A stretch of DNA of 64,000 nt from an uncultured delta proteobacterium. GTDB lineage: Bacteria; Desulfobacterota; Binatia; UBA9968. The first letter of the stretch is position 1. Each line of letters opens with the position of its first letter. The position numbers and the translations under genes were made by a program. The stretch is from the NCBI GenBank assembly GCA_963804165.1, contig CAWDPO010000023.1:192001-256000 (forward strand), given 5' to 3'. A model generated the notes under the pieces. It searched no databases and was not told where the DNA came from. It saw only the letters and a program-made list of their open reading frames with translations. Positions 46,585-64,000 of the stretch are shown piece after piece.

Positions 46585-46893
46585 TCAGAGATCGCACGTA
46601 AGATGTTCCTGCACGACCTCCGGCGGGCAGAGCCGAAGAAAAAGTTTCAGCCCAGCCAGCATGACGGCTAGGTCGTCCATTTGCCCAACGCCGATGAGAA
46701 AATCAGGCAGCAAATCCGTCGGCAAAATTACGTAGGCCAGAATTCCCACGATGATCAGCTTGGGACTCGCCGATACCCGTGGGTCTTTGATCAAGCGCGA
46801 GAAGAGTTTGGTGAAACTCGGTAGGTGGGTGAGCAGCTGAAAGAAGCCGCGCCAGCCAAACTGGCGGATGATCCCCGTCGGTTTCAATGCCAT
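46585..46893 (-). CDS. DUF1232/YkvA family membrane protein
   Basis: YVILPTDLLPDF..GQMDD. Confidence 0.85.
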   Translation of the reverse strand: MALKPTGIIRQFGWRGFFQLLTHLPSFTKLFSRLIKDPRVSASPKLIIVGILAYVILPTDLLPDFLIGVGQMDDLAVMLAGLKLFLRLCPPEVVQEHLTCDL

Positions 46894-46973
46894 ACTTCTG
46901 ACCTCCGTCAGTGAACAGGCACTGGCGAACGCCACCCTTTCACACGAAAGCTGGCATGAACATCGATGCGAGT

Positions 46974-48167
46974 CTAGTGTTTCTCCAAAACTCCCACCGG
47001 ATTGCCGCGCGAAAACAGCCCAATCACGCCCGCGCGGCAATCTTTCTTTGCTATGACCAAAGCCATCGCGAGGAAAATATAGAGGAAAGAATAGTAGAAA
47101 CGGAATTGCGGGTCGGGAAATAGCAATTGCGTCGAGAACAGCAGAAAAATAACCGCCGCTTCGAAAAGCGAAAAGGACAGATTGGCGAGAATTGCCACGG
47201 CGAACAAAGACTGCGCCGCGGTCAAAAACATCTCTTCAATTTGGCGTTGATCCATGACCATAGGTGCCATGCTTCCGCCGGAGATCATGAAAACCACCGG
47301 CAGCATGCCGATCAGCAACGTCCATTGATTGACCTTCGACGACAGCAAAGCTCCCATGGCCGTGCCGGGTTGCGCTTTCAGCGCGAACAAGATCGCGACA
47401 ATGAACTCCGGAGACTCGGAGGCCAATGGCGCTAGCCACTGAACCAGGACGAATTCCTCGATGCCGAACGTACGGCCGGTAGCCAAGAGTCCTTCGGCGA
47501 AAGGTTCCGCCGCGATAAAAATCGTAAATCCGGAATACAAGAAGAACAGCACGGTGAACAGCCGTCGTGCACCTTCACCCCAGCCTTCGATCATCGCCGG
47601 CGGCCCTTCTAGCTCAGTCTCCACATGCTCGGCCTTGGACGCGGCGCGCATGTAGAGAACGAAAATCGCGATGAAGACGACCGCATCCATCAAATCGAGA
47701 CGCCCTCTGATGGGAATCAGAAACGAGTAAACCGTCGCCAGGCCCAAATATAAAATTTCACTCCTATGGCCAGGTTCGAGTTGGATGGATTTTTTTCCGG
47801 TCTTAAGAAAATAAGTCAGCACCACGGCCGCCCAACCGACACCGATCAACAAGCGGTTGGCGCCGGTCATGTTCGCCATCGCGAATGCCGTGTATTTCGG
47901 GTCTTTACCGGCCTGCCAAGCGAAATACATATCGACTGCGTACTCAGGAAGTACCGCGATCAACGCGAGCAGCGCGATCGCTAAAGCTTGGGGATATCTT
48001 TCTGCGCCAGTTCGGCGGCCCATGAAAGCATGAACGCCGCGCCAAAAATCGCCACGCCGGAGCTAAGCGCCATCCAATGCGGCGGCGGATGTCCGCCTGA
48101 CAAAGTGGATAACTATCCATTGTAAGCAGAGTAATGCCGATGAACCGATCCAGAGCCAATTCGCCAT
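46974..48167 (-). CDS. Sodium:calcium antiporter family protein (N-terminal frameshifts)
   Basis: Alpha repeats AVLPEY..ANMTGAN and ASESPE..SSKVNQ. Confidence 0.85.
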
Positions 48168-48250
48168 CCGTTCCTCCGCGCGACAATCACATGATCGACA
48201 ATAACTCCCGTCCCTATTTTCATAGCCAATAGTGGAAGTCAATGCCCAAA

Positions 48251-48301
48251 TAAAAAGGGCGGGGTGATGCCCGCCCTTTCTTGAATTTGGTGGAGGCAGC
48301 G
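48251..48301 (-). other. Displaced tmRNA-like 3' end with its terminator (probable island att boundary)
   Basis: Minus strand CGCTGCCTCCACCA, then hairpin AAAGGGCGGG/CCCGCCCTTT and a T tract; no RNA gene body upstream. Confidence 0.6.
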
Positions 48302-48670
48302 ACACAGTGTAAAGAACCACTGTGCACTCTTTCCTTCCGCTTCTTATAATGTGGCGGCATCAATCCTGTTTAGAATGGAAACTTTCCGGAAACAGCCATA
48401 CCACGTTGGCGAAAATGCAGCGATTCCGTTGGGGCAAATAACGGCCAATCAGTAGGTCCGGGGTCGCAAATCACAGCGCAATTTCTTAAAATTCTCCTCG
48501 CTTTAATCCACGGGCACATCTGATTACGAATCGCGGTCAGCCTGCGAAACCAACCAAGAAGACCCAAACATTCCCGAAGGAATCGGTTGATATAGTGACT
48601 CGGTTTCCGGGTCTGTTTGGGTCTCTTGGGAAGCACTTCACGGACAAAAGGCGGACATTCCTTCCGTTTG

Positions 48671-48700
48671 ATTGAAGGAGAATTCAATTCAATCCTAGCG
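48671..48700 (+). repeat. Cassette site S1 (right half)
   Basis: ATTGAAGGAGA-ATTCAATTCAATCCTAGCG, 10 nt from an SBP stop codon. Confidence 0.8.
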
Positions 48701-48710
48701 TCGCAACCGG

Positions 48711-49420
48711 TTACTTGATCACTCTATCTGCTCGCGCGAGCACGTTCGGCGGAATCGTCAGGCCGATTTGCTTGGCAGCTTTGAGATTTATGATGAACTC
48801 GAACTTCTTCGGCTGTTCGCTTAGCGCCTTTCTTGTCGACGTAGGTTGCGGAGCGGCGAAACAAGTCGCTAACGTTCACGCCGTAGGTCATGAGCCCACC
48901 AGCTTCCACATAGTCCGCCACGTTGTATATCGCTGGAAGCCGAGTCCTTACTGCAAGTTCGACAACCTGTTTTCGCTCAGAATTGAGCACAGGACCCCCC
49001 AGCGCGAGGACAGCCTCAGCACGCCCCTTGCTTGCGGCCCGGAAGGCAGCCTCAATATCCCTGCCATCTAGTACGTCTAGGTATTGAAGCTTCACCTTGA
49101 ACGCCCCTGCGGCGAATTCCGTTTCTTTCAACGACTGTGCTTGGCCTGGGATGGTTGAAGTCCCGAGGATGGCCACGCGGGAGAGGCTGGGAACAGTCTC
49201 CTTCAAAAGCTCCAGTTGTTTTCCGCTTATCTCTGGGCGAAGAGTTGACAGTCCAGTGATGTTCCCACCAGGACGTCATGACGATGGGAATCGTAACAGT
49301 CGCTTCCTTGGCAGCACGGGTTACTGACGGAGCAGCCGTGACGATGACATCCACCTTGAGACGCACTAGCTCCGCCGCGAGCGCGGGGAAGCGATCGAGT
49401 TTTTCCCCTGCAGTCGGTAC
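48711..49420 (-). pseudogene. ABC substrate-binding protein (PF04392-like) pseudogene
   Basis: LAAELVRLKVDVIV, GGLMTYG and [20 protein letters not shown] fragments; internal deletions; no N-terminus. Confidence 0.88.
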
Positions 49421-49536
49421 GCTTGGCAGTCGCCTCTTTTTGCAACTGATAGCGCAAGAGGCTTAGCCTCGATAACTCGGTTTTGAATGTTCTCAGCCCG
49501 GGGGTTGGCGGCCTGTTCGCGCGCAAGCGCTTGTTA

Positions 49537-49908
49537 TTATAGCTCAGCGCGAATAAATTTATCGATTTTTGCTTTAATTATCTCTAACGAGATCGGCTTT
49601 TCCAAGTAATCGACCATTCCCGCGTCTAAAGCCTCTTCCCGAGCGTGGCATCCAAGAAAATCGCTGCAACCAATGATCGGTATGTGAGTGGTTATTGAAT
49701 TGCTTCTCACTGCGCGGGCTACGTCGGCGCCTTTCATATCCGGAAGATCAATATCCAACAAGATAAGCGTTGGCTTACCGGAAATAGCTAGTTTCATTGC
49801 CTCTGCGCCGCTCGCGGCTTGTGCGACTTCGTAGCCACAACCATGGAGCATCAACGTCAGGATTTCTCTTAGATGTAGATTGCCGTCGACGATAAGGATC
49901 TTCGGCAT
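49537..49908 (-). CDS. Response regulator receiver (DivK-like)
   Basis: ILIVDG, LDIDLP, KPI. Confidence 0.85.
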   Translation of the reverse strand: MPKILIVDGNLHLREILTLMLHGCGYEVAQAASGAEAMKLAISGKPTLILLDIDLPDMKGADVARAVRSNSITTHIPIIGCSDFLGCHAREEALDAGMVDYLEKPISLEIIKAKIDKFIRAEL

Positions 49909-50119
49909 ATTGTGGCGGAGTCAAGTTTAGAGAAAGATCCATTGGGGCGCAACGCGGAAATTTTCTCATAATCACAGCACTGCAAAAGGGCGTTTCCAAT
50001 TTTGCTCTCTAGGAAACTCAAAGGCGCAATTACGGATTTAATGGAGCGGAAGCGATCTAGTTAAAGAATCATCGGCAACGCCAGTGCGCTGAATCGCCGG
50101 GCCGCCCGGAGCACTGTTT

Positions 50120-50662
50120 TTAACGAAGAGATCGCCCCGGCCGAATAGCAGGATTGGTCGACGAGCTTCGGTGTGATCGATGAAATCTGTTAAGCAATCC
50201 GAACTCTTGCAGCTTTCTAGAAGTGAAGGTTCGGGACTCGCTCTGCCCGTCCGCTTGCTGGTAATCCACCGCGACGGAATCGGGAGTCCAGAAAATATGA
50301 AATGCGTTGGCCCCCGCTCTATCAAAGTGATCGCCTAAGCTACGCATGAGTTGCGACAGCTTACTTGAGACCTGGGTTTGTGAAGAAGAATGGTTTCGTC
50401 TTTGCTTTTGCCATTGCGCCTCCAGTCGGGAAATAACAGCGGAGCTGAAGCGGAAGGCGCTGCCACTCGACGAGGAGCGATGACCAAAGTTTTCGCTCAA
50501 AAAGCCTTCGCTCGTTGCGTTTCGTAAAATCCACTCACTCGACGGGCTCAGAGCATCGCTACTAACAAGGTAGTCGTGGCCATCTTTCTCAAGTTCAAAG
50601 GTTGCAATCCTGGCAGCTTCTAGCGACTGGCCAATGACTCTCAACGATCTAGCATGGGTCAT
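50120..50662 (-). CDS. Hypothetical protein, paralogue of 50787-51194
   Basis: MTHARSLRVIGQSLE...LSQLMRSLGDH. Confidence 0.7.
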   Translation of the reverse strand: MTHARSLRVIGQSLEAARIATFELEKDGHDYLVSSDALSPSSEWILRNATSEGFLSENFGHRSSSSGSAFRFSSAVISRLEAQWQKQRRNHSSSQTQVSSKLSQLMRSLGDHFDRAGANAFHIFWTPDSVAVDYQQADGQSESRTFTSRKLQEFGLLNRFHRSHRSSSTNPAIRPGRSLR

Positions 50663-50786
50663 ATATGAGTTTTATTTGAATTGTAGGGGTCAGTGCAACA
50701 GCTATCGCGTCCGGAAAGACGCTGCAAGCAACTTAGGTGATTCTTATTCTTTGTTATCGTCTCTAGGCGACATTTATGCAAGGGGA

Positions 50787-51194
50787 TTAGACTGTGGCTG
50801 ATGGGATTGTCCAACCGAGCTCCTGCAGCTCTTTAGCCTTGAATGTTCGGCTCTCGCTTGGTCCAACGGGTCTTTGGTAATTCACTAAAACCGAGTGAGA
50901 CATCCAGGAAATGTGAAAGGCGCGTGTTCCGGCGTCGTCAAGATGATCGCCTAAATTGCGAAGCATTTGAGAGAGTCTATTCGCTTGCGTGCGTGAAAGA
51001 GAATGACGTTCTCTTTGTTTTTGCCCCTGGGTATCAAGCCGCGAGATATGGGCTGAACTGAGACGCACCAACCGATGAGTCAACGAATTGCTGAGCACAA
51101 GATAATTGTCGCCGCTATTCTCGATCTGAAAGTTCGTGACCCGAGCTGCCTCAAGTGATTGTCCGATTGCTCTCAGTGACTTTGCGTGATGCAT
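50787..51194 (-). CDS. Hypothetical protein, paralogue of 50120-50662
   Basis: MHHAKSLRAIGQSLE...LSQMLRNLGDH; GAGGGG RBS. Confidence 0.7.
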   Translation of the reverse strand: MHHAKSLRAIGQSLEAARVTNFQIENSGDNYLVLSNSLTHRLVRLSSAHISRLDTQGQKQRERHSLSRTQANRLSQMLRNLGDHLDDAGTRAFHISWMSHSVLVNYQRPVGPSESRTFKAKELQELGWTIPSATV

Positions 51195-51554
51195 TTTCGA
51201 TCCCCCTCGTGTGCGTGATGGCAAATTTCTGCGTGACCGCCAATCGCGCCTCCCCGACGGTAGTCAAAGCGAGTGAACCAATCGAATACCAGGTGTAAGA
51301 AACCATGTCGACAACTTTGTCCATCTTGTGAATATATTCTCCAACTTTTCTCAAAATGAGCGGATTATCCGAGCGCACGTGGCATGTTTTGAGTGTCCCA
51401 TCCAGCATTTGCCTATCGATGTAAGTCAAAACCAGCGAATTAGGACGCGAAACAGGGGTAGTATGCTGTTATGAGAATAAAGACTGAGACGAGGCTGTCA
51501 TGAAGCAGTGAAAGAATTGTTTAGGCGAAAAACGTGCAGCCGGAGGGATCAGTC

Positions 51555-51821
51555 CTAGAAACGTTGACTTCGGTCGGAGCGCAGGAGAGCGCCACAGTGA
51601 TGGCACTTAGATGTTCGGTAGTTGATTCGCTCGGAACAACGCGGACATTTAAATGCTTTTGGCGCGCGCCTCATCGCCCATGCCGCGAAAACGAAAATTG
51701 CACCCGCCGAGAACAGGACCGGACGGACTTCCTCGTGGTCGGCGATCACCGAGGCGGCGAAAACCATCAAGATTCCCAGGACAACGAAGACCCACGGGAC
51801 AAGAGTTGGAATCGTATGCAC
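51555..51821 (-). CDS. Small membrane protein with C-terminal zinc ribbon
   Basis: Two TM segments, then CPRC..CHHC. Confidence 0.5.
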   Translation of the reverse strand: MHTIPTLVPWVFVVLGILMVFAASVIADHEEVRPVLFSAGAIFVFAAWAMRRAPKAFKCPRCSERINYRTSKCHHCGALLRSDRSQRF

Positions 51822-52315
51822 CGAGGTCTTTGTACTAACGCGATTTGTTGTTTACAACTGTTTTCTTCCAAGCAGCCGCCCACCGATGACGATCACCAGA
51901 AAAGCCGCACTCACCGCGAATAGTAGATTGACGCCTAGGCCGAATGGCGCTAGCCAACCAACGATGAATACCACGACGCAGGCGACGAAAAGTAGCAGGT
52001 AAAATCGAAGCGCGTAGGGCATGAGGCTGGCTCATATCGCTGACCACATCGGACTGCAATCTCACGCTGTTCAAATCCGATGAGGTTTTCTAACTCGCCG
52101 ACAACCCTTTGGCGATTTTTCCCTCTATCACGAAAAACGCCTGTGGTTAGGGAAAGCCGTCTTACGCGTCTGAGTCTTTCGTTCACTAAATGCTTGATTC
52201 AGCCGTTTTGCTCCGCCCACGCTACCGCAAAGGGGCACGCGTTTCCTTACTTTATCCCGAAAATCCTTCTGGCATATCTATTGCGCTTTTGAAGGGACAA
52301 GGAGAGACATCATAG

Positions 52316-53278
52316 ATGCGAAAATCGGCGGAGAAAACTATCTTCCTGGAACCGATGTACGCCCTCGCGGTTCGCAATCTCCCCGAAGGAGAGGACTGGC
52401 AGTACGAGATAAAACTTGACGGCTATCGGTGTATCGCCGCCCATGACTCCACCGGAGTAAAGTTGTGGTCGCGCAGCGGGAATTTATTAACAGCTCAATT
52501 CCCGGCGATCGCACAAGTCTGCCAGGTGCTTCCCCGGGGCACGGTCGTCGACGGCGAGATCGTCTCCCTCGACGAGAACGGCCTGACGTCATTCAATCTA
52601 TTACAGCGCCACCGCTCGGAGGCATCGGCGATTCGTTACTATTTGTTCGATTTGCTTGTTGACCGCAGCGAAAGCTGGCTAAATGTCCCGCTCGCGGATC
52701 GGCGCGCCGCACTCGCCACAAAAGTCCGCCGGACCCTGCAACCTCCTTTATTAATCTCGGAAACGATCGAGGCGCCCGGCGATCAACTGATTCAGTCGGC
52801 GAAAACCCTCGGCTTCGAGGGCATTATCGCAAAGCGTTTGAACTCCCTATACGAATCGGGAAAGCGCAGCGGAGCCTGGGTCAAATATAAGATCAACAAA
52901 GGACAAGAGTTCGTGATCGGCGGCTTTACACCCGGCAATCCGTTCGACGCCGTCATCGTCGGATATTACCAGGACGGTAAGTTATTCTACGCGGGAAAAG
53001 TTCGTGCCGGCTTTGTGCCGCACGTCAGGCGCGAGGTGATGGCGAAGATGAAAGCATTGAGAATCGACACTTGCCCTTTTGCCAATCTACCGGAGAAACG
53101 ACGTACGCAGTGGGCGCTCACCCGCGAGGAAATGAAAGACTGCGTATGGCTCGAGCCGGAACTCGTCGCCCAGATTGAGTTCACCGAATGGACTCCAGAC
53201 GGGCATCTGAGACACGCGAGTTTCATCGGCCTTCGCACCGACAAGCGCGCGCGGGAAATTGTACGAGAGCCCGGTTAA
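52316..53278 (+). CDS. ligD: ATP-dependent DNA ligase (LigD ligase domain)
   Basis: EIKLDGYR, DGEIV, EGIIAKR, WVKYK, EFVIGG, LRHASF. Confidence 0.92.
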   Translation: MRKSAEKTIFLEPMYALAVRNLPEGEDWQYEIKLDGYRCIAAHDSTGVKLWSRSGNLLTAQFPAIAQVCQVLPRGTVVDGEIVSLDENGLTSFNLLQRHRSEASAIRYYLFDLLVDRSESWLNVPLADRRAALATKVRRTLQPPLLISETIEAPGDQLIQSAKTLGFEGIIAKRLNSLYESGKRSGAWVKYKINKGQEFVIGGFTPGNPFDAVIVGYYQDGKLFYAGKVRAGFVPHVRREVMAKMKALRIDTCPFANLPEKRRTQWALTREEMKDCVWLEPELVAQIEFTEWTPDGHLRHASFIGLRTDKRAREIVREPG

Positions 53279-53354
53279 ACTCGATGCAATCTCATCCCGA
53301 ATTTCCTCGTTCTGGCAAATTGCCGGAACCACGCGCTTTCTGCATGTCGGATTT

Positions 53355-53753
53355 TTACCTCGATCTAAACTCCCAGGGCGCCGGTATCCTCGCAACCTCG
53401 GCATTCAAGCGGTCGATCTCTGCCTTGATCTTTTCATCCTTGGTTCGGAGGTATTGCGTGCCAAGCCGGCCAAGGCGTTGATCGATTGCATAGCGGACGG
53501 CGTCATGAATGCCGCCAAAGTTAACGCGGAGATTCTGCTGCTGGCCCTCGCCATCGTCATTGAGGCCAAAGGGTTGCGGGATGCGATCAAGGTGATGTCG
53601 AAACGCTTCCGCGTCCCATCGTGTATCGATGTAGCGCTCGATCGTGTCTGCCGCCTCGTTAACCTCGGGTGTATCGATGCGGCGCTCATTGCAACCGAGC
53701 GTAGCGTCTTCAAGTATCTTGAGGGCTTCAAGGACTCGCACACACGATTGCAT
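53355..53753 (-). CDS. Hypothetical protein
   Basis: 132 aa ORF with plausible composition; overlapping alternative ORFs exist. Confidence 0.4.
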   Translation of the reverse strand: MQSCVRVLEALKILEDATLGCNERRIDTPEVNEAADTIERYIDTRWDAEAFRHHLDRIPQPFGLNDDGEGQQQNLRVNFGGIHDAVRYAIDQRLGRLGTQYLRTKDEKIKAEIDRLNAEVARIPAPWEFRSR

Positions 53754-54318
53754 GCACTGAAATACATTCAGGTGTCAAATCCTGAATGAGTTCAGACGGT
53801 GCATGCGACGACGACGCACCCGCGGGCGCTGCGTTGTCTGGAGTCGCGCGTAACGCCGGCAACGTCCGTCGTCGCCTGAATCAGAACGCCAAGCCAAAGC
53901 GCCTTTTCTTCCACAATTTATCGCCTTTCCGACAAGTGCCAGGGCTATTGACAAGGGCATCGTAAATAAATATTTTCGCACCGCCATGAATCTACGCAAT
54001 CACCCTGAATAAGCACCTGGCCGCCTAGCTGGCTTGCACTGTCGGGAACGCGGGGAAAAAATCGCCCGGTGAATCCGCCATCCTCATAAACGTTGGCCTC
54101 TCCAATATTGACCCGGTAACGATTTGTTATCTAACCGTGCAATTTGAGAATGAGGAATACTTGGGAACTCTGCTATGCAAAGAGCCTCACACTTGCCGCG
54201 CTGCGTTACCAAATCCTGCAAAACCATATCGGAAAACCGATGAGTGAGATTGGCGATTTAGACTTGCTCTACCCACAAACATGAGACCCAAGTCAGGGCT
54301 TAGAAGTAAAGGTTTTTT

Positions 54319-54531
54319 ATGCCGAATCGCGCGACCAAGCATACGTTTTCATTTAGCGTTAAATTTGAAGGCAAGAAATGCGAAGCGAACTACTCTATAC
54401 AGTCTGGCGTCGTCACTGTTACTTCCGACTACGGCTCTAAATCAGCTCTTGCTGGCGGAAAAGCTGATTTAACTGCGCGCATGTTGCTGCGCGAAATTCT
54501 TCGAGAAGCGAAAAGCCGTGGCAAACGATAA
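54319..54531 (+). CDS. Small hypothetical protein
   Basis: ATG ORF with AAAGG RBS, followed by hairpins. Confidence 0.5.
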   Translation: MPNRATKHTFSFSVKFEGKKCEANYSIQSGVVTVTSDYGSKSALAGGKADLTARMLLREILREAKSRGKR

Positions 54532-54970
54532 TTGAGCGCACCCGCTAACTCTCTCCCTCATGAGAGTTAAAAATTGAGAGAGCCGGGTGAAAGGATAGGC
54601 TCCGGCCCTCTCTCACTGGCCAACCCACGCCACACCTTTTATTTTGTGTGCGATTCAAGCGCGGCCAAGCCATAGCCCAAGCGATGATTTTCCCCCCTGC
54701 CCCGGCAGGCGGGCGCCCCCTCTTTTACTTGTAGAATCTAGCACGCGCGCTGGAATTTCGGTTAACTTTTGGCGTGGTCACTAGCAGATGACAAACCAGA
54801 TTACCGCGAGGGACGACCGTCTTTCCTGCTCGCGTCGTTAAAACCGCTTCATACACGACAACCGAGTTGGATTCCTAATCCGGTGCGGCGCTGCAACATG
54901 CCAAAGCGAAAAGATAATTTTGATGCTGTGCCCGACTTGTGCCCGCCCTGACAGCCCATCCGAGTTTCAA

Positions 54971-54999
54971 TCGTAGGAGAATTCAGTTCAATCGTAACG
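54971..54999 (+). repeat. Cassette site S2 (right half)
   Basis: TCGTAGGAGA-ATTCAGTTCAATCGTAACG. Confidence 0.78.
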
Positions 55000-55169
55000 T
55001 TTCGGGTGGGCGGTGCTTCGAGCGTCGGTCTCAACCCGAGGAGTTGGTGAAGCGGCAGCACAATCGCCTGTGATTGAGAAACGTGATGACCGCACATCAA
55101 TTGTTTCTCTCGGAAGGTCTTGCCTCAGCGTTTCTTCTTTCCAGTTTTTGCTTTGGTGGCCAGGTCATG

Positions 55170-56084
55170 CTAGGCGGAAAGCGCTTTCGCGGCGCCCTTG
55201 ATCTTTTCCGGTCCTTCTGTCGTCAACTCGTTGACGAGTTTGACAAAGTTGGGATGCTCCAATCCCGATACCAGGAAAGTCCATCTCCAGGCGCGATGGG
55301 TCTTTGTCGAAATCTCCTCTTTCTCGGCTTCCGTGAACTTGCGGCCGGTCACGTTCTGCAGAGTCTCTATGTTCAGCTGGATCTGCTGCAACAGTAACCC
55401 GTCGATAGCTCCCCCAAGTTCGAGGAGCTCATCGACAGCAGTTTCTCGCTCCTTGAGGGTCGCCGTCTCCGCAATCTCGTCGATTAGCATGGTGTCAAGT
55501 TTGGCGTGTTGTGCCTCTTCCATCCAATGAAATCTCAAAAGATCGCGGAACAGCTCATCGAGACCCGAGGCATCACGCACGTGTTCGACGTAATGGAGCT
55601 GGGTAAACCATTCGATTACCGTGGTCAAGTACAGCGCGGCCAGCACCGACTTGCTCAGGACGACCTTCGCCACATCCTCCCGACCGGGGATTAAGCCGCA
55701 CTGCGCGCCGAAACCTTGGTCGAACAAGACCACCGCGCGGCGAAAGAGCTCCTGATGCTTGAGCTCCTCCTCTGCGAACCGCAGCAGCGAACGGAGCCTG
55801 ACTTTCTCCCCGTAGGCGTCCTTCAACGCCGCTTGCGTCACCATGGGAATAATAAATTCCTCCACGAAAGCGAAGATATGGCAGTAGGCGTTGCCCATGA
55901 TCTGGTTCAACTGGCGCTTCTCGTTGTCGTTCAGACATGTGATGTTGTCAACACCGCTCAATCGATTCGGCAGGAAACGCTTCGAGAAATCGAAATTCTT
56001 CCCTGCAAAAACATCGTCCTCTTTCCACGCTACCTTCTTGGAATTGTCGAGACATTCCTGGTAGGAGTAATTGTGCGAAAGCAT
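55170..56084 (-). CDS. Ferritin-like diiron protein (AurF-like oxygenase candidate)
   Basis: EEELKH and EEAQH ExxH pairs; GAAGAGG RBS. Confidence 0.8.
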   Translation of the reverse strand: MLSHNYSYQECLDNSKKVAWKEDDVFAGKNFDFSKRFLPNRLSGVDNITCLNDNEKRQLNQIMGNAYCHIFAFVEEFIIPMVTQAALKDAYGEKVRLRSLLRFAEEELKHQELFRRAVVLFDQGFGAQCGLIPGREDVAKVVLSKSVLAALYLTTVIEWFTQLHYVEHVRDASGLDELFRDLLRFHWMEEAQHAKLDTMLIDEIAETATLKERETAVDELLELGGAIDGLLLQQIQLNIETLQNVTGRKFTEAEKEEISTKTHRAWRWTFLVSGLEHPNFVKLVNELTTEGPEKIKGAAKALSA

Positions 56085-56206
56085 CGCGCACCTCTTCAAC
56101 GTAAAGAGATTTTAGGCTTCGTCGAATGATTCTGAAAAACCCAACACACTCTGGCTAGCCCACGCTATTTTATCAGTTCGATCAAAGTCAAGCTTATTAT
56201 CGCCGC

Positions 56207-56277
56207 AGGATTGAACTGGAACGCAACAGTCGCGTCTTGTAGGATTAAGTCGTTGGAGAATACAATTCAATCCTAGC
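56207..56277 (+). repeat. Cassette site S3 (complete hairpin)
   Basis: AGGATTGAACTG...GGAGA-ATACAATTCAATCCT; alignable to S6 along its length. Confidence 0.82.
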
Positions 56278-56298
56278 TCGCCGCGTCGCTTTGTTCGG

Positions 56299-57284
56299 TT
56301 ACTTGATCACCTGATTCGCCCGCTCGAGCACGCGGGGCGGAATTGTCAGACCGATCTGCTTCGCCGTTTTCAGATTGATCACAAACTCAAACTTCGTTGC
56401 CTGCTGCACCGGCAAATCAGCCGGTTTGGCGCCTTTTAAAATCTTGTCGACGTAAACCGCCGCGCGCCGATAGAGGTCATCGTATTCCGTCCCGTAGAAC
56501 ATGAGGCCGCCCTCTTCGACAAACCCCTTATCAAAGTAAATAGCCGGCAACCGATATTTGTCGGCAAGCTCCACGATCCGCTTTCTTTCGGCGAAAAATC
56601 TGCGATTGGAGGTCGTCATAATCGCGCCAACCTGTTTTTGCTTTGCGGTTTGAAAGGCGCGCTCTAAATCTTTGGGGTCGGCTTGAGCCTCGATCTCGTC
56701 CAATTTGAGCTTCAGCGCCAGAGCCGCAGGCTTGATCTCTTTCAATTGAAAGTTTCCTGGTCCGGCTGCCGGAGTCCACAGAAGTCCAACTCGGCCGAGC
56801 TTGGGCACCGCGTCGTTGAGTATCTCTAGTCTTTTGGTATTCAGTTCTACTGATTGAGCAGTAAAACCCGTCACATTCCCACCCGGCCGGGCTAGACTGG
56901 CAACCAATCCTGCGCCTATAGGGTTCGCAGCGCTCGTCATTACGATGGGAATGGTAGCGGTGGCGCTCTGGCCGCTAACGCCGCTACTGTCCCGGTAACC
57001 ACAATCAGATCGATCTTAAGACGAACCAGCTCCCCCGCAAGCTCAGTTAGTCTTTCAGTCTTTTGCTCGGCAAACCGGTACTCGATGGTGAGATTCTTTC
57101 CTTCATTCCATCCAAACTTGCTCAGCTCTTGCCGGAACGCGTCCACGAGGACTGCATTGCCAGAAGCAGTGCTTGGATCCAGCAAACCTATGCGGAAGAT
57201 TTTCCCTGTCGGCTGCGCCTCGACTATGGCCACAAAAGCAAGCAGGACCACTACAAACAGGATTGAGAAAATGGCTTTCCTCAT
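56299..57284 (-). CDS. ABC substrate-binding protein (PF04392-like), one frameshift near 56965
   Basis: Signal peptide, [26 protein letters not shown]. Confidence 0.9.
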
Positions 57285-57923
57285 TGCACATACCATTACC
57301 CGTCATGTGTATCACGTGGAACGGTAGTAGAGAACAGTGAAATTTACGACGGGAAGACGGCAGTTTTTCGTCGCATGGGAAGACCGAAGTGAGTCGTGGC
57401 GTAGGGAGTCAATCGAATGTCGCCGAAGGTCAAGAAAAAGACGCTTGAGGGCCTTTATAGAAGTGCGGGTCTGGATCATTGTGGATAAGACACACTTAGG
57501 GGAGCGAGTACTATGCACATCACCGCCGGACCTTGGCCACGTTTCTCTATCGCAACTTTGGTTATTGGCCTGTGGATGCTGTGGCGGAGAAAGCAGAATT
57601 AACTTTGAGCCCGCGATGGTTTTGCGTGCAATCCTAATTTTGGTCACCGAGTTGCGACTAATTCGTCGAAACAAAACTGCGCCCCTGGGTGAGCGTCTGG
57701 CGTTTTTCGGTACGCGCGCCCATCCCATATGACCGTGAAGCTATTGGCCGCATCATGGATGATCTCGCAAGGCTATCGCTTCATTGAAGACGCAGAAGTC
57801 AAAGCCGCGATTCTCGAAGTGCTGATCGACTTGGGTCGTCAATTGGGCGAGCTTGGGACACCCAACTATCATTGACCGTGGTTTCTGCACCTGTTCAAAC
57901 AAATTTGAAAGAAAGGCAAAACA

Positions 57924-58076
57924 ATGAAAGCGGAGAAGGACGATGGGTATAAGTGCCCACGATGTGACGACCACATTCCGGAGCAGTTCTACTGCCGCGA
58001 CTGCGGCTACGTGCCGAACTGGAGGCAGATTGAAACGACAAGACCCACAGAGAAGCGGCATAACTCATGGAGCTGA
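57924..58076 (+). CDS. 50-aa zinc-ribbon microprotein
   Basis: My translation: MKAEKDDGYKCPRCDDHIPEQFYCRDCGYVPNW...; GAAAGG RBS; below the ORF-track cutoff. Confidence 0.6.
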   Translation: MKAEKDDGYKCPRCDDHIPEQFYCRDCGYVPNWRQIETTRPTEKRHNSWS

Positions 58077-58098
58077 GATGTCCTATCTAAATTCGACT

Positions 58099-58510
58099 GT
58101 GATGACTTTCGTCTCCCTGCCAACGGCCTTGAACAACCGAAAACCGCTGATTGCCATCGTTGATGACGATGAGCCTGTCTGCCGTGCAGTGAGACGACTG
58201 GTGCGATCGGTGGCGATGGACGCGGAAACATTCAACTTCAGGACAACAGTTTCTCGATCTGCTTGAAGCGATGCCTTCGTTTCAACCCAAATGTTTGATT
58301 CTGGATGTGCAAATGCCGGAGATGAATGGTCTTGAAGTCCAAGATTGGCTCGTGAAAAACGGCAACACGGTTCCCGTGATTTTTATCACGGCGCACGATG
58401 AGGTCGGCGTCCGTGACAAGGCGCTAGCCGCTGGCGCAGTTGCGTTTTTGCGTAAGCCTTTCAACGACGAGCTTTTGATCAAGACGCTTCGCGAGGCGCT
58501 GAAGGACTGA
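58099..58510 (+). CDS. FixJ-like receiver-only response regulator (frameshift near 58237)
   Basis: IAIVDDD, LDVQMP, FITAH, KPF. Confidence 0.8.
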
Positions 58511-58511
58511 T

Positions 58512-58540
58512 TTGAAGGAGAATTCAGTTCAATCCTGGCG
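58512..58540 (+). repeat. Cassette site S4 (right half)
   Basis: TTGAAGGAGA-ATTCAGTTCAATCCTGGCG. Confidence 0.82.
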
Positions 58541-58569
58541 TCGCAGTTTGTTTTCCCGGCATCATCGAA

Positions 58570-59524
58570 TCACTTTATCCGACCTGGCCAATACATTCCG
58601 CGGAATCGTCAGGCCGACCTGCTTTGCGGCTAACTAAAGTCGATCCATCCCACCAGCGCGGTGCCGAAATGCTCGCCATCAACGACCCGGAACGAGCATT
58701 CAAGTGACCTGCACGTAGCGACCCTTCTCGATCTCATAACCACGCACAAGGTGATGGCGCTCTAAGACTTCGTTACAGACTGCACAGAGATGGCGGTGTT
58801 TGAGGCGTGACCCGCATTGGGCGTGTAAAAGATTGAAGAATGGTCGCTGTGTGGAGCTCGACCGGGATGGCACCAAGCCAAATGGCCAGGAGGTCTTCGA
58901 TGGCTCGATGCGGCGCGGGGCATCGGCTACCGGGCACCAAGCGATGAAGGCTTAAAGAAACAGATTGCACTGCCCTATCTTGATGGCGCTCTGGATCGTG
59001 CGCGAAAGCTCGAATAAAACTCCATTACGACGGACGGTGCATCTTTCCATCTGCTACTCTTAAATCCATGGCTCGCCCCATTGCCCGGAGCGTTCTGCGC
59101 TTTCAGAGCAGCGATGAACCTCCGGGCATACTCCAGTGATCGAACCCGCTGGCAACAGGATCGCCGTCCTGCGCAAAGACAATGGGAATCGTGGTCGTCG
59201 CTTTCTTGGCGGCACGGGTTACCGACGGACCAGCCGTTACGATGACATCGACCTTGAGACGCACCAGCTCGGCCGCAAGCTCACGCTCGCGATCCGCTTT
59301 TCCCTCTGCGTATCGATACTCAACGTCGATGTTTTCCCCCTCCACGTACGCCAGCTCGCGCAGCCCTGCCGGAATGCCGCGACGCGAGCGACAACGGCGG
59401 CGGGTTTGGTGTCAGCTAGGAATCCTATCCGTGAGACCTTCTTCGGCTGTTGCGCACCGGCTCTGACTGCGAAAGCAAGCAGTACCACTACAAACAGGAT
59501 TGATAAGGCACCCGCTTTCTTCAT
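58570..59524 (-). pseudogene. ABC substrate-binding protein pseudogene with its middle replaced by foreign DNA
   Basis: N-terminal part to DPVASGF at 59140-59524; C-terminal AAKQVGLTIPRNVLAR at 58570-58630. Confidence 0.85.
58700..58923 (-). pseudogene. ku: Ku protein N-terminal remnant
   Basis: FGLV / IPVELHTAT / FNLLHAQCGSRL..CAVCNEVLERHHLVRGYEIEKGRYVQV across frameshifts. Confidence 0.72.
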
Positions 59525-59627
59525 TGCACACACATGTATCACGCGGGACGCTACCAGAGAGAAAGTAACATTTAGGACGGAGGGCGACAGCGATTCTTCG
59601 GGTGAGAAAACCAGATTTTAAGCGTGA

Positions 59628-59688
59628 GATTGAACTGAACGACGCTTCAATGTAGATGCTGGCGGAGATTAAGCATTGAAGGAGAATT
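59628..59688 (+). repeat. Cassette site S5, left part (right part displaced to 62215-62233)
   Basis: GATTGAACTGAAC-GACG-CTTCAATG..CATTGAAG-GAGA-ATT. Confidence 0.85.
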
Positions 59689-59835
59689 GGACTAAACCGC
59701 TTCGCGGTAGGCCGGAGGGCCGGAGTCCCTGCCATGACGTTCTTCCTGCTTTAGTTTTGCAGTTATCATTTTTTTGACGGTGTGTCGTGTCGCAGTGATA
59801 GCCTCAGTGAAAATTTTTCACTCAAGGAGGCTGTC

Positions 59836-60681
59836 ATGGGAGCATTACGAGACCGGATGATCGAGGAGATGAAGCTGCGGAACTTTTCGGCTGCAACACA
59901 GAAGACGTACGTCTACGCGGTGACACGGCTAGCGAAATATCATGGCAAAGCGCCGGACCAGCTCGGTAAGGAGGAGATCCGAGCCTTTCTTGTGCATCTG
60001 ATAGTGGAGCGGAAGTTATCGCCCAATGGTCTGACCGGCTACTGCTCGGGGCTGCGGTTTTTCTATAACGAGACTCTGGGATGGGACGAGAACAAGCTGT
60101 TCATTCCACCGCGCAAGCAATCGTCACCTCTGGCGGAGGTCTTCAGTCCCGAGGAAATCGTGCGTCTGATCCGCGCGGCCCGAGGTCTCAAGCAGCGTGT
60201 GCTGTTAATGACCGCCTACTCGGCTGGACTGCGAGTCAGCGAGTTAGTCAATCTCAAGGTCAACGACATCGATCCGGCGCGCATGACGCTACGTATCAGG
60301 CAAGGTAAAGGCGGCAAAGACCGTTACGCGATTTTGTCGCAGAACCTCCTTGCGGAACTGCGTGTGTATTGGAAACGCTACCGGTCCGCGGTCTGGCTTT
60401 TCCCCAACCGAGCCAAGAACGGCCCTTTGAGTCGAAACGAAGCGTGGCACATCTTCAATTCGGTCAAGAGAAGAGCGGGCCTTAAAAAGGGCCGTGGCAT
60501 ACACAGCCTGCGGGCATGTTTTGCCACTCATCTGTTGGAAGCGGGTGTGGACCTACGCTCGATCCAGTTGTTGATGGGGCACACCTCGCTTATGTCTACC
60601 CAGCGCTACTTGAGGCTATCGCCACAGAGCGTCAACCGTGCCCTTAGTCCGCTCGACCGATTACCGTTAACGACGGTCTAA
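59836..60681 (+). CDS. Tyrosine recombinase with N-terminal SAM-like domain
   Basis: GLRVSE, GKGGKDR, HSLR, LMGH and TQRY give R-K-H-R-H-Y; AAGGAGG RBS. Confidence 0.95.
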   Translation: MGALRDRMIEEMKLRNFSAATQKTYVYAVTRLAKYHGKAPDQLGKEEIRAFLVHLIVERKLSPNGLTGYCSGLRFFYNETLGWDENKLFIPPRKQSSPLAEVFSPEEIVRLIRAARGLKQRVLLMTAYSAGLRVSELVNLKVNDIDPARMTLRIRQGKGGKDRYAILSQNLLAELRVYWKRYRSAVWLFPNRAKNGPLSRNEAWHIFNSVKRRAGLKKGRGIHSLRACFATHLLEAGVDLRSIQLLMGHTSLMSTQRYLRLSPQSVNRALSPLDRLPLTTV

Positions 60682-60684
60682 GCC

Positions 60685-61875
60685 GTGGGCGCCGGCTCTG
60701 GACAGCCGGCAGCAAGAGGCGGCGTTGAACTGGCCGATATTTTTCGCGCCTATGGCGAGTCGTATCGCCGCCACCATCCGTTGCCGGTCTCCCATCTTAA
60801 GGTTATGCAGGCCGTGGAGCGCTGTCGCACTGCAGCTCTCGGAGGCCACCTCCAGCAGTGTGATGCCTGTGGCTTCGAGCGTCCCGCCTACAACTCCTGC
60901 CGCAATCGACACTGCCCTAAATGCCAATCGTTGGCGAAGGTCAAATGGCTCGATAAACAAAAGTCAGAACTGTTGCCGACCGGATATTTTCATCTGGTCT
61001 TTACCTTGCCGCACGAATTGAACCCGTTGATCCTGATCAACAAGAAACCTCTCATCAATATCCTGTTTCAATCGGTCTGGCAGACCTTGGCGCAGTTTGC
61101 CCGGAGTCATCTCGGTGGGAGCTTGGGGATCACCGCAGTTCTGCACACCTGGGACCAGACCCTGTTGGATCATTTTCATCTGCACTGTCTGGTTCCCGCC
61201 GGCGCGTTGTCCTTTGATCGAAACCGCTGGGTCCCGGCGCGTCAGGACTTTCTCTTTCCAGTCAAAGCCCTGAGCCGGGTCTTCCGCGCTAAGTTTCTCG
61301 ACTCGCTCAAAAAGAGCTTCGATCAAAGCAAGTTGCTCTTCGTCGGACAGATCGCGCCCTTGGCCGACGCCGACAGCTTTGGTGTACTTCTCAATGGATT
61401 GCGGAAAAAACCGTGGGTGGTCTATGCCAAAAAACCATTTGGCTCTCCCGTCTATGTCCTTGATTACTTAGCTCGCTACACTCATCGTGTAGCACTCTCC
61501 AACGATCGCATCTGCTCGCTCCACAACCGGGAGGTCACCTTCACGTACCGCGATCGGAAAAATGAAGATCGACGTAAATTGATGACGCTGGGGGCCGAGG
61601 AGTTCATTCGACGCTTTTTGCTCCACGTCATCCCCAAGGGTTTCATGCGGGTGCGCCACTACGGCTTTTTAGCCAACCACCGCAAAGATTGTCTGTCGAA
61701 GTGTCGTCAACTCGTGGGACTTTCACCTGCACTCATCCCACCTCCTCAACGCTCTCCTGACGAGTTGATGCTGGCACTGAGGGGCATCGATATCCATCGC
61801 TGCCCCCGCTGCCAGACCGGAACGCTGATGTGGGTCTTCGACTTGGCGGTCTCCCGACCGTGGGATTCGTCGTGA
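60685..61875 (+). CDS. IS91-family (Y2 HUH) transposase with zinc-binding domain
   Basis: CRT..LGG..C..CG..SCRNRHCPKC, HLVFTLP, HTW..HFHLH, YLARY, RHYGFLAN. Confidence 0.95.
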   Translation: MGAGSGQPAARGGVELADIFRAYGESYRRHHPLPVSHLKVMQAVERCRTAALGGHLQQCDACGFERPAYNSCRNRHCPKCQSLAKVKWLDKQKSELLPTGYFHLVFTLPHELNPLILINKKPLINILFQSVWQTLAQFARSHLGGSLGITAVLHTWDQTLLDHFHLHCLVPAGALSFDRNRWVPARQDFLFPVKALSRVFRAKFLDSLKKSFDQSKLLFVGQIAPLADADSFGVLLNGLRKKPWVVYAKKPFGSPVYVLDYLARYTHRVALSNDRICSLHNREVTFTYRDRKNEDRRKLMTLGAEEFIRRFLLHVIPKGFMRVRHYGFLANHRKDCLSKCRQLVGLSPALIPPPQRSPDELMLALRGIDIHRCPRCQTGTLMWVFDLAVSRPWDSS

Positions 61876-62233
61876 AGATCGCTCGATCAAATCAAAACCA
61901 GAGTCTTGCTGTTGCTCAGTGCCGGAGCCAATGCAGCGCTGTATTCTGTTCCGCCATTTTCCCTGCTACTAGCCCGCGCTACAGTGCGCGCAGCTCCCTG
62001 CTCGCCGCTACAAACCACATCCCATACCGCCCCATCATCTTGTTGCTCACCACTCAGCAGCGTCCGTTTACCTCATCCTTTCCTGTTCAATCCCCATAGG
62101 CAACGACTCTTGCCTCTCCCAGCGCTTTAGTCCAATGGGTTTTAACCTGAATGCGCCCGTTCTTCCCAGCTATCACCGATCGTTCTGCGCTCGCATTCAG
62201 GTTAAAACCTGTACATTCAGTTCAATCCTGGCG

Positions 62234-63208
62234 TTACTTAATCACCTTGTCAGCCCGTGCCAGCACATTTGGCGGAATCGTGAGACCGATCTGCTTCGCC
62301 GTCTTCAGATTGATCACCAGCTCGAACTTCGTCGGGGCTTCAACGGGCAAGTCCGCAGGCTTGGTCCCTTTCAGAATCTTATCCACATAGGTTGCGGCGC
62401 GGCGGTACAAGGTAGTGTAGTCCGACCCGTAGGACATAAGGCCGCCCGCCTCCACAAACTCTTTCTCCCAGTACATCGCTGGCAGTCGATGCTTAGCGAC
62501 GAGTTCAACAATGCGCTTCCTGTTCGCGCTCGGGACAGGACCTTGGATCACGAGCAGCGCGTCGGCGCGCCTCTGGCTCAAGGCGCCGAACGACGGTTCG
62601 AGATCCTCCCGTCGTCTTATCTCAAGGGATAACGGCGTTAACCCCAGCGATGGTGCCACCGCCTCGGTCTCCTTGAATGCGACGACGGACGCTGTACCTT
62701 CTGGATTCCAGAGGATCGCCACCCGAGATGCCTTCGGCAAAACCTCCTTGATCAGTTCAAGCCCTTTAGTGCTCAACTCTGGAGAGAGGGTCGTGTTTCC
62801 AGTCACGTTGCCTCCGGGGCGTGCAAGGCTCGCGACAAGACCGATTCTCACAGGGTCGCCGCCCGCTGCGATCACGATCGGGATTGTCTTGGTTGCTTTG
62901 GCCGCCGCTCTCGCGGCCGTTAGGCCTCCCGTAACGATGACATCCATTTTGAGCCGTACTAGTTCAGTGGCTAGCTCAGGGTATTTCTCTGTTCGTCCTT
63001 CTGGATCTCGCTGTTCGATTATGATGCTCTTCCCCTCGATGTACCCGAGTTCGCGCAGACCCTGTTGAAAGGCATCGACGCGCTGCTGACCACCGCTCAC
63101 GAGCATGCCTACTCGCGGAACTTTCGCCGGCTGCTGCGCCTCGACTATAACTGCAACAGCAAGCAGTATCACGGCAACCAACGCCGACGCCCAGCCCGCT
63201 TTTTTCAT
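62234..63208 (-). CDS. ABC substrate-binding protein (PF04392-like), intact
   Basis: Signal peptide, [48 protein letters not shown]. Confidence 0.94.
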   Translation of the reverse strand: MKKAGWASALVAVILLAVAVIVEAQQPAKVPRVGMLVSGGQQRVDAFQQGLRELGYIEGKSIIIEQRDPEGRTEKYPELATELVRLKMDVIVTGGLTAARAAAKATKTIPIVIAAGGDPVRIGLVASLARPGGNVTGNTTLSPELSTKGLELIKEVLPKASRVAILWNPEGTASVVAFKETEAVAPSLGLTPLSLEIRRREDLEPSFGALSQRRADALLVIQGPVPSANRKRIVELVAKHRLPAMYWEKEFVEAGGLMSYGSDYTTLYRRAATYVDKILKGTKPADLPVEAPTKFELVINLKTAKQIGLTIPPNVLARADKVIK

Positions 63209-63306
63209 GGCCGCTACATTACCACGCGGAGCCTAGCGATGAAAAGTGTGATTTGCCGCAATAGAAGAACCAGAGTCTTCGAGGGGAAGAAGACCAATTT
63301 CGACGT

Positions 63307-63373
63307 AGGATTGAACTGAACGACGCTTCAGTCAAATCTCATAGGATTTAGTCGTAGGAGAAATCAGTTCAAT
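63307..63373 (+). repeat. Cassette site S6 (complete hairpin)
   Basis: AGGATTGAACTGAACGACGCTTCA...GTCGTAGGAGA-AATCAGTTCAAT. Confidence 0.85.
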
Positions 63374-63378
63374 TACAG

Positions 63379-63473
63379 CCTTAGCGTTGGCGTTGAGGGA
63401 GTGCTGAGGATCCGAAGCGATAAGGGAATCCAGCGGCAGGACTGCTGCGTTCCCCTCCACCGCTTTGTTAGTT
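63379..63473 (-). repeat. Degenerate classical integron attC-like site
   Basis: Minus strand AACTAAC-AAAGC-GGTGGAGG...CCTCAAC-GCCAAC-GCTAAGG follows the R-L-L-R box layout with GTT changed to GCT. Confidence 0.5.
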
Positions 63474-63586
63474 AAGTTAGATAGTGTCATTTCACGCAAT
63501 CGAGCAGTTGAAAGCGAGCCGAGAGCCGCTTGCAACGAACCGAGCCGAGGCGCTAAACGTCGAATCAACTGAAATTGATGGAACCG

Positions 63587-64000
63587 ATGAAGTTAATTAA
63601 ACAGTTACCCGTTTGGCTGTTCGTCTCGCTGCTTCTGCTGGGAGCCGTCCCTACTTCAGCAATGGAGATGAGCGTCAGCGGCTCTCAGCTCATCCTCAGC
63701 GGTTTCATTAACGAGTTGGATTACGACAAATTCCTTTCGCACCTAACCCCAGCCATACGAACTGTCGTCTTCACCAACAGCCCGGGCGGGGTACATTTGA
63801 TCGGGTTAGCCCTTGCTCACGAGATTCGACGCCGAGGGCTGTCGACCGTTGCCTTGGGGTACTGTAACTCAGCCTGCGCCAATGCGTTCCTTGGTGGAGC
63901 GGATCGCCGGTTGGCCAATGACCGTAGCTACGTTGCGTTTCACGGCAATTACTCGTACCGGATCGGCAGACCTTTAACCGGACACTTCGGCGAGCTATCT
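63587..64000 (+). CDS. Exported ClpP/crotonase-like protein (COG3904-like), partial
   Basis: Not in the ORF track; my translation shows a signal peptide, NSPGG, CNSAC..AFLGG and AFH; open to the window end. Confidence 0.75.
   Translation, partial: MKLIKQLPVWLFVSLLLLGAVPTSAMEMSVSGSQLILSGFINELDYDKFLSHLTPAIRTVVFTNSPGGVHLIGLALAHEIRRRGLSTVALGYCNSACANAFLGGADRRLANDRSYVAFHGNYSYRIGRPLTGHFGELS

Follow-up and report, generated by a model that had tools for sequence, protein, structure and literature searches.

Elements of the IS91 family carry a two-tyrosine (Y2) transposase of the HUH class and, as described in PMC13181058, recognise a target tetranucleotide next to their right end, oriIS (CTTG, GTTC or GTCC), and a similar cleavage site at their left end, terIS. 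According to the same text, the functional intermediate of IS91 is a bottom-strand single-stranded circle, which the transposase TnpA inserts alone; double-stranded circles were reported in vivo, double-stranded junction circles gave no insertion, and Orf121, encoded upstream of and overlapping tnpA, tunes cleavage at terIS. Some IS91 relatives are already known to carry a tyrosine recombinase (TR), and these TRs were grouped with the integron integrase IntI, as an 'Integron-like' subgroup without the IntI insert, in a preprint (bioRxiv 10.1101/542381). ISWz1, a relative, was reported beside resistance genes in Weeksellaceae and, in PMC11322121, is treated only as an IS91 member. Here we describe an element with a TR gene directly upstream of an IS91-family transposase gene, inserted into an attC-like repeat in a 64,000-nt stretch of DNA (the window) from an uncultured bacterium of the class Binatia (contig CAWDPO010000023.1, hereafter C23, positions 192,001 to 256,000).

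Integrons and certain phages provide the other obvious points of reference. IntI cuts the bottom strand of attC at AA|C, within a geometry of 5′ outer arm, unpaired spacer and stem, and its IntI-specific domain reads extrahelical bases; a tyrosine recombinase cuts at the boundary between arm and spacer, with the arm on the 5′ side. In CTX-type filamentous phages and integrative mobile elements exploiting Xer (IMEX), an HUH Rep protein makes single-stranded DNA by rolling circle and an Xer-type recombinase integrates a folded hairpin through one strand exchange. The element described here likewise pairs an HUH enzyme with an Xer-type recombinase and a putatively folded single strand; the phages, however, rely on host XerCD and the dif site, whereas the present element brings its own recombinase and uses a target other than dif. 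Insertion at one position and in one orientation of attC-type hairpins is also a feature of the IS1111-attC group and of group IIC-attC introns. The former use a DEDD transposase and a guide RNA, the latter a ribozyme and a reverse transcriptase; neither is known to have an HUH enzyme or a tyrosine recombinase.

The element occupies positions 59686-62214 of the window (2,529 bp) and is intact. Its left junction reads GGAGA-ATT-GGACTAAACC (59682-59698), that is GGAGA|ATTGGACTAAACC, and its right junction TGTAC-ATT-CAGTTCAATC (62210-62227), that is TGTAC|ATTCAGTTCAATC. In silico removal of 59686-62214 yields GATTGAACTGAAC-GACG-CTTCAATG-N21-CATTGAAG-GAGA-ATTCAGTTCAATC, a site whose 13-nt outer inverted repeat (12 of 13 positions paired) encloses 4-nt spacers and an 8-bp inner stem with a 21-nt loop. 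The left part of this interrupted repeat (59628..59685, plus strand, as are the features that follow unless stated) comprises GATTGAACTGAAC (59628-40), GACG (59641-44), CTTCAATG (59645-52), the loop (59653-73), CATTGAAG (59674-81) and GAGA (59682-85), and the right part (62215..62228) is the 3′ outer arm ATTCAGTTCAATCC, whose first three letters (ATT, 62215-17) are the triplet shared by both junctions. A sequence-only reading of the window had proposed a discrete mobile unit with exactly these ends, and all its sequence statements hold; a second copy, outside the window (C23:259577-262105) and at the same position in another copy of the repeat, differs at 1 of 2,529 nt. Breaks at 59681-59690 and 62205-62233 occur in public metagenome contigs of four studies, and two contigs carry the repeat uninterrupted, 59649 being joined to 62215 via 31 other letters ending in GGAGA. 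We also considered the flanking arms GATTGAAC...GTTCAATC as inverted ends of a larger element; this is ruled out by 32 insert-free units of 65-70 bp and by the metagenome contigs with the uninterrupted form.

The TR gene (59836..60681; 281 aa from its ATG, with an in-frame GTG at 59782 too) encodes an Xer/IntI-like protein with domains PF13495 and PF00589. Its best NCBIfam matches—archaeal XerA (180.9 bits), integron integrase (156.7 bits), XerD and XerC—are all below their cut-offs. For the integron integrase model TIGR02249 this cut-off is 265 bits, and the match falls into two stretches (model positions 4-181 and 248-315), split around model positions 182-240, where the stretch corresponding to the IntI-specific insert is unmatched. 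Residues R133, H223, R226, H249 and Y258 are invariant in nine homologues. The transposase gene (60685..61875; 396 aa) starts 3 nt past the TR stop codon, thereby placing the upstream gene next to tnpA as orf121 is in IS91. Its product passes the NCBIfam IS91 equivalog model (NF033538; 430.6 bits, cut-off 125), matches PF04986 (E = 3.6e-59) and PF14319 (E = 1.5e-32) and, like those of IS91, IS801 and IS1294, combines a Zn-binding domain with HUH (HFHLH at 163-167) and two-tyrosine (Y261-LAR-Y265) motifs. The catalytic residues are thus kept in both enzymes. The domains of the element are those of a tyrosine recombinase and a Y2 transposase only, with no DEDD transposase of the sort that marks the IS1111-attC group.

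How general is this pairing? Among loci returned from a species-level genome collection, 80 of 80 TR homologues had a transposase gene directly downstream, with source labels including Binatia, Alpha- and Gammaproteobacteria, Acidobacteriota, Planctomycetota, Desulfobacterota, Bacteroidia and Verrucomicrobiota. Conversely, a TR gene accompanied 20 of the 23 transposase loci with enough upstream sequence, the other three being truncated or carrying stop codons. The linkage holds down to about 33% transposase identity. In a comparison with plasmid elements, the transposases of TR-linked members were 42-50% identical to this one and canonical IS91-family transposases 22-28%; in the TR-linked elements, unlike in canonical IS91, the upstream gene is always a tyrosine recombinase. 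Taken together, it is well supported that the element is intact, was active recently and belongs to a distinct, widespread clade of the IS91 family, in which a TR gene always lies directly upstream of the transposase gene. We refer to the element itself as type A, to a second subtype within the same genome as type B and to a rhizobial subtype as type R. Type B DNA (C41:58400-61013, C5:2590-5093, C10:35555-38083, C41:1062-3620 and copies on C37 and C9) is 64-66% identical to type A, with GTTGAACTAAACCGC as its left end and GCGGTTTAGTCCAAC, a hairpin and CTATAC as its right end. Type R is represented by nine copies, whose TRs are 46-47% identical.

Target choice can be judged from seven independent type A copies, five in this genome and two in other genomes. 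In every case the element joins the repeat at the same phosphodiester, which lies 5′ of RTT on the inner edge of the outer stem. Besides the two copies on C23, the genome holds copies on C18 and C30 that are about 75% identical, and a left-end remnant on C24; these lie in the mirror arm and read GCGTC(G)|TT...|GTTCAGTTCAATCC. Copies in another genome of the genus (L042) and in a further metagenome-assembled genome (L123) again interrupt this repeat. All seven insertions are at |RTTCAGTTCAATCC (TTACAG... in L042); one arm of the repeat holds two of them and the mirror arm the other five. On the strand co-linear with the bottom strand of the element, each follows 5′-GGATTGAACTGAAY, at the point where the outer stem gives way to the unpaired spacer. 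Given 120,900 RTTC sites and 111 repeat arms genome-wide, the probability that a random RTTC insertion falls in such an arm is ~9e-4. Target duplication is not seen: the paralogous empty repeats carry a single ATT or GTT, and removal of the element restores a structured, symmetric site, as the sequence-only reading had it. That the target choice of type A is far more specific than a tetranucleotide is thus supported.

The ends of the element may recreate the architecture of the target. When the element is circularised, the left end (terIS-like, 59686..59708) meets the right end (oriIS-like, 62122..62214), and the predicted fold of the junction comprises an outer stem, an inner hairpin and, between them, an internal loop. 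The outer stem would form between ATTGGACTAAACCGC (59686-59700), as its 3′ partner, and the box GCGCTTTAGTCCAAT (62122-36); as previously stated, the box and the reverse complement of the left end agree at 14 of 15 positions. The box is followed by G, an 18-nt arm (62138-55), a 36-nt loop, a second 18-nt arm (62192-62209) and TGTAC (62210-14); the stem of this hairpin is perfect over 18 bp, with fold z = -4.9 on the plus and -4.8 on the minus strand. The left end additionally contains a small subterminal hairpin, ACCGC-TTC-GCGGT (59696-59708). In one respect the earlier account needs amending: donor and target were said to share only architecture and the ATT triplet, yet 9 of 11 positions are identical between the donor box TTTAGTCCAAT and the target arm TTCAGTTCAAT. 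A conserved word, CAATCCCCATAG (62078..62089), lies on the 5′ side of the box, some 30 nt away; (C)AATCCCCATAG occurs at this distance in types A, B and R, and in 20 of 41 relatives ATCCCCATA is found at most 90 nt upstream of the box. A search of window positions 46000-64000 against Rfam at E <= 1 gave no match.

The same fold is predicted for all three subtypes, with TRs 46-56% identical; in each, the left end pairs with a box 88-96 nt from the right end. For a broader view, we took the 66 testable loci and retained the 45 (41 distinct) with at least 12 of 15 complementary positions at the left-end motif, RTTG(A/G)AC(T/G)AA(A/G)CCGC, which is conserved across the 41 distinct relatives. Among these, position 1 of the outer stem is A:T in 20 and G:C in 12 elements, position 5 is A:T in 31 and G:C in 7, position 8 is T:A in 16, G:C in 23 and unpaired in 2, and position 11 is A:T in 12 and G:C in 18. 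Mixed base combinations are nearly absent at these four switching positions, a pattern that is informative despite the preselection. The compensatory changes indicate intrastrand pairing. A hairpin of 10-22 bp starts no more than 3 nt from the box in 32 of the 41 elements, RTT follows 3-9 nt after the hairpin in 29, and the arms of the inner hairpin covary while differing widely in sequence between subtypes. No comparable outer stem was found in IS91 itself (1,827 bp; at best 8-9 of 15 positions, versus 13-14 in the TR-linked types) or in a 1,717-bp element from E. coli plasmids (five copies; at best 9-10 of 15). The predicted folded junction is thus a feature of the clade, which adds to the family's end organisation a pairing of the first 15 left-end nucleotides with a box 5′ of the right-end hairpin. 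The claim that the circularised ends give an analogous two-stem hairpin is upheld at the level of predicted folds, compensatory changes within the clade and absence from both canonical elements.

In other respects the element agrees with its family, with two dissimilar ends bearing subterminal hairpins, no terminal inverted repeats, no target duplication, RTTN at the left end and beside the right end, and a CTATAC-like word, a spacer of 5-6 nt across the clade, at the right tip. The tip words TGTAC, TATAC, TATCC and CTATAC resemble CCTATC of IS91 and CCTATAC of the second canonical element, whose right ends were taken as oriIS from the description of the family's ends in PMC13181058 rather than by alignment to a published oriIS. 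The target word is RTTN, as opposed to the strict GTTC/CTTG of IS91, and recognition extends well beyond four bases. The sequence-only reading had contrasted the locus with a canonical IS91 devoid of such a core; this premise was wrong, since the family has a target tetranucleotide by oriIS and a similar site at terIS (PMC13181058), and ATT/GTT stands in exactly that place.

There is also a likeness to integron cassettes. Donor and target both appear to fold as outer stem, unpaired spacer and inner stem, corresponding to the R box, spacer, L box and variable loop of attC; the crossover, AAY / RTT, would lie at the inner edge of the outer stem with the same strand logic, and the target repeats are arrayed in a common orientation directly 3′ of genes. 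Unlike an integron, however, the element carries its TR within the cassette itself instead of on a fixed platform beside attI and Pc, and has an HUH transposase; unlike IntI, its TR scores below the IntI cut-off and is without the IntI-specific insert. The extrahelical bases of attC are not seen in the perfect 18-bp stem, and the crossover appears one base further out (|RTT as compared to G|TT).

The target repeat is 65-70 bp long. The assembly of this genome (7.5 Mb, 81% complete) contains 32 complete copies, grouped in arrays on C5, C8, C12, C14, C18, C21, C23, C41 and C43. Within an array all repeats are co-oriented, 1-4 kb apart and usually directly 3′ of a gene; the array on C23 covers window positions 48683-63374 and extends beyond (C23:240677-268935). 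On the gene-sense strand, the two differing spacers read TCTCC and GCGTC; they and the outer arms are conserved, and the centre is variable. Single sequences fold as an outer stem, an internal loop and a variable inner part, as for the neighbouring uninterrupted repeat (63309..63374, minus strand), a paralogous empty site for which the stretch 63305-63378 gives z = -4.4 and -4.1. RNAalifold returned no consensus structure for 33 aligned repeats; the repeat structure is therefore taken from single-sequence folds.

We call the repeat attC-like because its layout resembles an integron cassette array, and the arrays look like those of clusters of attC sites lacking an integron integrase (CALIN). 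The term stops short of 'integron site', given that IntI is below the cut-off here, patchy among relatives and not adjacent to the repeats, and that attC sites of a related genome are ordinary. Specifically, no IntI above the TIGR02249 cut-off was found in this 81%-complete genome. In tallies that include the unpublished genome G005, IntI above the cut-off occurs in 9 of 41 relatives, and matches at E <= 1e-40 in 14 of 24 other genomes of the genus. In five relatives (G018, G014, G015, G012 and G006) the repeats lie on contigs other than those with IntI or more than 30 kb away, and in the 20-kb stretch around the two IntI genes of G014 the attC sites are of the ordinary GCCTAAC...GTTAGGC kind. 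One of these relatives, G018, has 31 matches to the 18-nt half-site pattern of the repeat (up to 2 mismatches), yet no TR-IS91 element; the arrays are therefore independent of a resident copy of the element.

Targets of the other subtypes complete the picture. For type R, three orthologous empty sites read ..ctggtcGGG|ATTCCcc.., as compared to the occupied ..GGG|ATTGAAC...CTCCAG|ATTCC.., so that insertion 5′ of RTT without duplication also holds for the rhizobial subtype, with RGG|ATTCC as its target. Type B lies in ..CACTTAATA|GTTAGGC.. and ..TATATTACTG|GTTAGC.., with uninterrupted paralogues on C15, C26, C12, C10 and C5. These subtypes recognise targets of 8-20 nt. Long and specific as they are, the type B and rhizobial targets are not always hairpins. 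Three side observations concern these subtypes. The right flanks of type B read like the integron core GTTRRRY. Those of type R (L046-L054, and L074-L076 in Bradyrhizobium) have GATTCA at a distance of 17-24 nt from the junction and, after it, a hairpin of the form GCTGGC...GCCAGC, often just before annotated IS5, IS630 or other transposase genes, which looks like a second structured target module. Finally, a contig of a Solibacteraceae metagenome-assembled genome (L127) carries a related element in head-to-tail tandem copies, and one of a Binatia metagenome-assembled genome (L057) a right tip with a 23-nt tandem duplication; failed rolling-circle termination or insertion into the element's own junction could be behind both.

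How might such an element move? On the bottom strand, the donor junction and the type A target both read 5′-outer arm ending in AAY | 4-5 unpaired nt - stem - loop - stem - spacer - RTT-3′. It is only on this strand that the crossover falls at the boundary of arm and spacer with the arm on the 5′ side, and the bottom strand is also the one that a rolling circle started at oriIS would displace. The attC-like geometry, the position of the crossover and the identity of the displaced strand together fit a division of labour, in which the HUH transposase makes a single-stranded circle and the TR integrates it through a hairpin. By analogy with IS91, the transposase would nick the right end, and rolling-circle replication would release the bottom strand as a single-stranded circle. 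The circle junction would then fold into a 5′ outer arm ending in AAY, an unpaired spacer, an inner hairpin and an outer arm beginning with RTT, and a TR dimer would bind the two stems and synapse the junction with a target of the same layout, namely the 65-70-bp attC-like repeat, on whichever of its near-symmetric strands runs with the bottom strand of the element. The TR would exchange one strand at AAY| (|RTT on the top strand), replication would resolve the product, and the outcome would be an insertion of defined orientation, free of duplication, on the inner edge of the repeat's outer stem. The element would thus act as a self-encoded cassette whose own HUH enzyme supplies the single strand. 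This interpretation, which the sequence-only reading had put forward in essence, is plausible on comparative evidence, its mistaken premise about IS91 aside; we lean towards it tentatively, with a confidence just short of even. It gains from the clade-restricted, covarying outer stem, from the long and specific targets and from the strict linkage of the two genes, the last of which suggests a core rather than an accessory role for the TR.

Several observations weigh against such a role in integration. Since TnpA of IS91 inserts the single-stranded circle without help (PMC13181058), insertion by the HUH enzyme alone is the default for the family; and since RTT(N) is the family's own target and terIS word, the shared triplet is expected under plain HUH transposition and matches what that mechanism predicts. 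The target mimics the right end in its hairpin, 4-5-nt spacer and cut, so the HUH enzyme could read it, and each arm of the repeat contains two GTTC/GAAC words, the classic target of the family. The TR is without the domain by which IntI reads extrahelical bases, and the 18-bp stem offers no such bases. Nor are hairpin targets universal: the type B site ..CACTTAATA|GTTAGGC.. folds weakly, several rhizobial targets show no inverted repeat, and RTT is absent from the right flank of one Solibacteraceae copy. At the type A junctions, the base before TT is missing on the left in C18 and on the right in L042. Moreover, the 41 elements behind the covariation were preselected for at least 12 of 15 paired positions, which favours pairing, and the canonical comparison comprises two elements only.

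A good part of this would be accommodated if the Y2 transposase performed all cutting and joining at RTTN sites and the TR were an accessory, an alternative that we consider a serious if somewhat doubtful contender. The repeat would then be preferred for its GTTC/GAAC words at the boundary of stem and loop, beside an oriIS-like hairpin; pairing of the left end with the box would do no more than bring the two ends together; and the TR could resolve tandem multimers arising from failed termination, aid recognition of terIS like Orf121, which occupies the same upstream position in IS91, or act in regulation. The resemblance of the right tip to the right ends of the two canonical elements, the family hallmark RTT(N) at the left end and right flank, the cut about 5 nt from a hairpin in both donor right end and target, and the tandem copies and tip duplication noted above would all be in keeping with this. 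However, canonical elements are described with tetranucleotide specificity only, whereas type A hit one repeat position seven times out of seven, each at the probability given above, and the other subtypes, too, recognise more than four bases. The covarying outer stem is, among the elements examined, limited to the TR-linked clade, and a mere accessory sits uneasily with a two-way linkage kept to about 33% transposase identity.

Highly unlikely, in our view, is a double-strand pathway, in which the TR would integrate or excise a duplex circle at ordinary sites and the hairpins would be incidental or would act as cruciforms or transcription terminators. It could draw on the double-stranded IS91 circles seen in vivo and on type B targets, which look like duplex attI-type sites. 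Yet in a duplex, some 95 bp separate the left end from its partner box, so that the two could not make up a single core site, the compensatory changes indicate pairing within a strand, and the double-stranded junction circles of IS91 failed to insert (PMC13181058). Least credible of all is a passive cassette, moved by a host IntI acting on the attC-like right end and the array repeats while its own two genes serve other purposes: the IntI genes of relatives and the five of seven insertions on the GCGTC(R)|TT side, an integron-like position, speak for it, but the IntI findings in this genome and around the repeats of its relatives do not, and the same end architecture is found in rhizobial plasmids at targets outside any array.

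The genes within the arrays deserve a brief description of their own. Next to the element, an ABC_sub_bind gene (62234..63208, minus strand; PF04392, E = 1.2e-53), with its stop codon 6 nt from the repeat, forms a cassette-like unit between two repeats. Homologues of it account for 23 of 137 open reading frames in the arrays, the others including response-regulator receivers, a DNA ligase, an AurF-like protein and unknowns, several of them fragments. The ATP-dependent DNA ligase gene (PF01068 and PF04679; window 52316-53278, plus strand) lies among repeat halves of the array region. ABC_sub_bind paralogues number dozens genome-wide (on C6, C16, C19, C37 and C38, and in the window at 56299-57296 and 59103-59542, minus strand); several array members are fragmented, and most paralogues outside arrays have no repeat. 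In some cases a gene lies between a half repeat and a minimal hairpin of 32 nt, GATTGAACTGAA-GGAGA-ATTCAGTTCAATCC (C5:21534-22650, L136; C23:256330-256847, L137; C8:28312-29431), and many lone halves exist too. A comparison of the arrays of G018 with those of this genome gave no clean cassette boundaries, the dozens of ABC_sub_bind paralogues swamping the signal.

What would the clade mean for the biology of integrons? A bolder proposal is that it consists of free-living 'autonomous cassettes', whose rolling-circle enzyme produces the single strand and whose IntI-like TR, without the IntI insert, recombines folded hairpins; the repeats would be attC-type sites, the clade a relative of or model for the integron ancestor, and the arrays integron-like stores that need no resident intI. 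We regard this as rather unlikely, albeit worth stating. In the literature searched, we found no description of an obligate two-gene module spanning many phyla, of covarying attC-like folded ends, of a subtype with a single-bond target in an attC-like, array-building repeat or of the long, specific targets of other subtypes; subscription journals, ISfinder/TnPedia and supplements were outside that scope, and the system may be described there. If the TR indeed does the joining, the clade would join integrons and CTX-type phages as a third natural system in which folded single-stranded DNA is recombined, and would be the first in which the strand-making and the integrating enzyme travel together. 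The origin of integron recombination would thereby become testable, and a compact, site-specific and duplication-free insertion system would be on offer.

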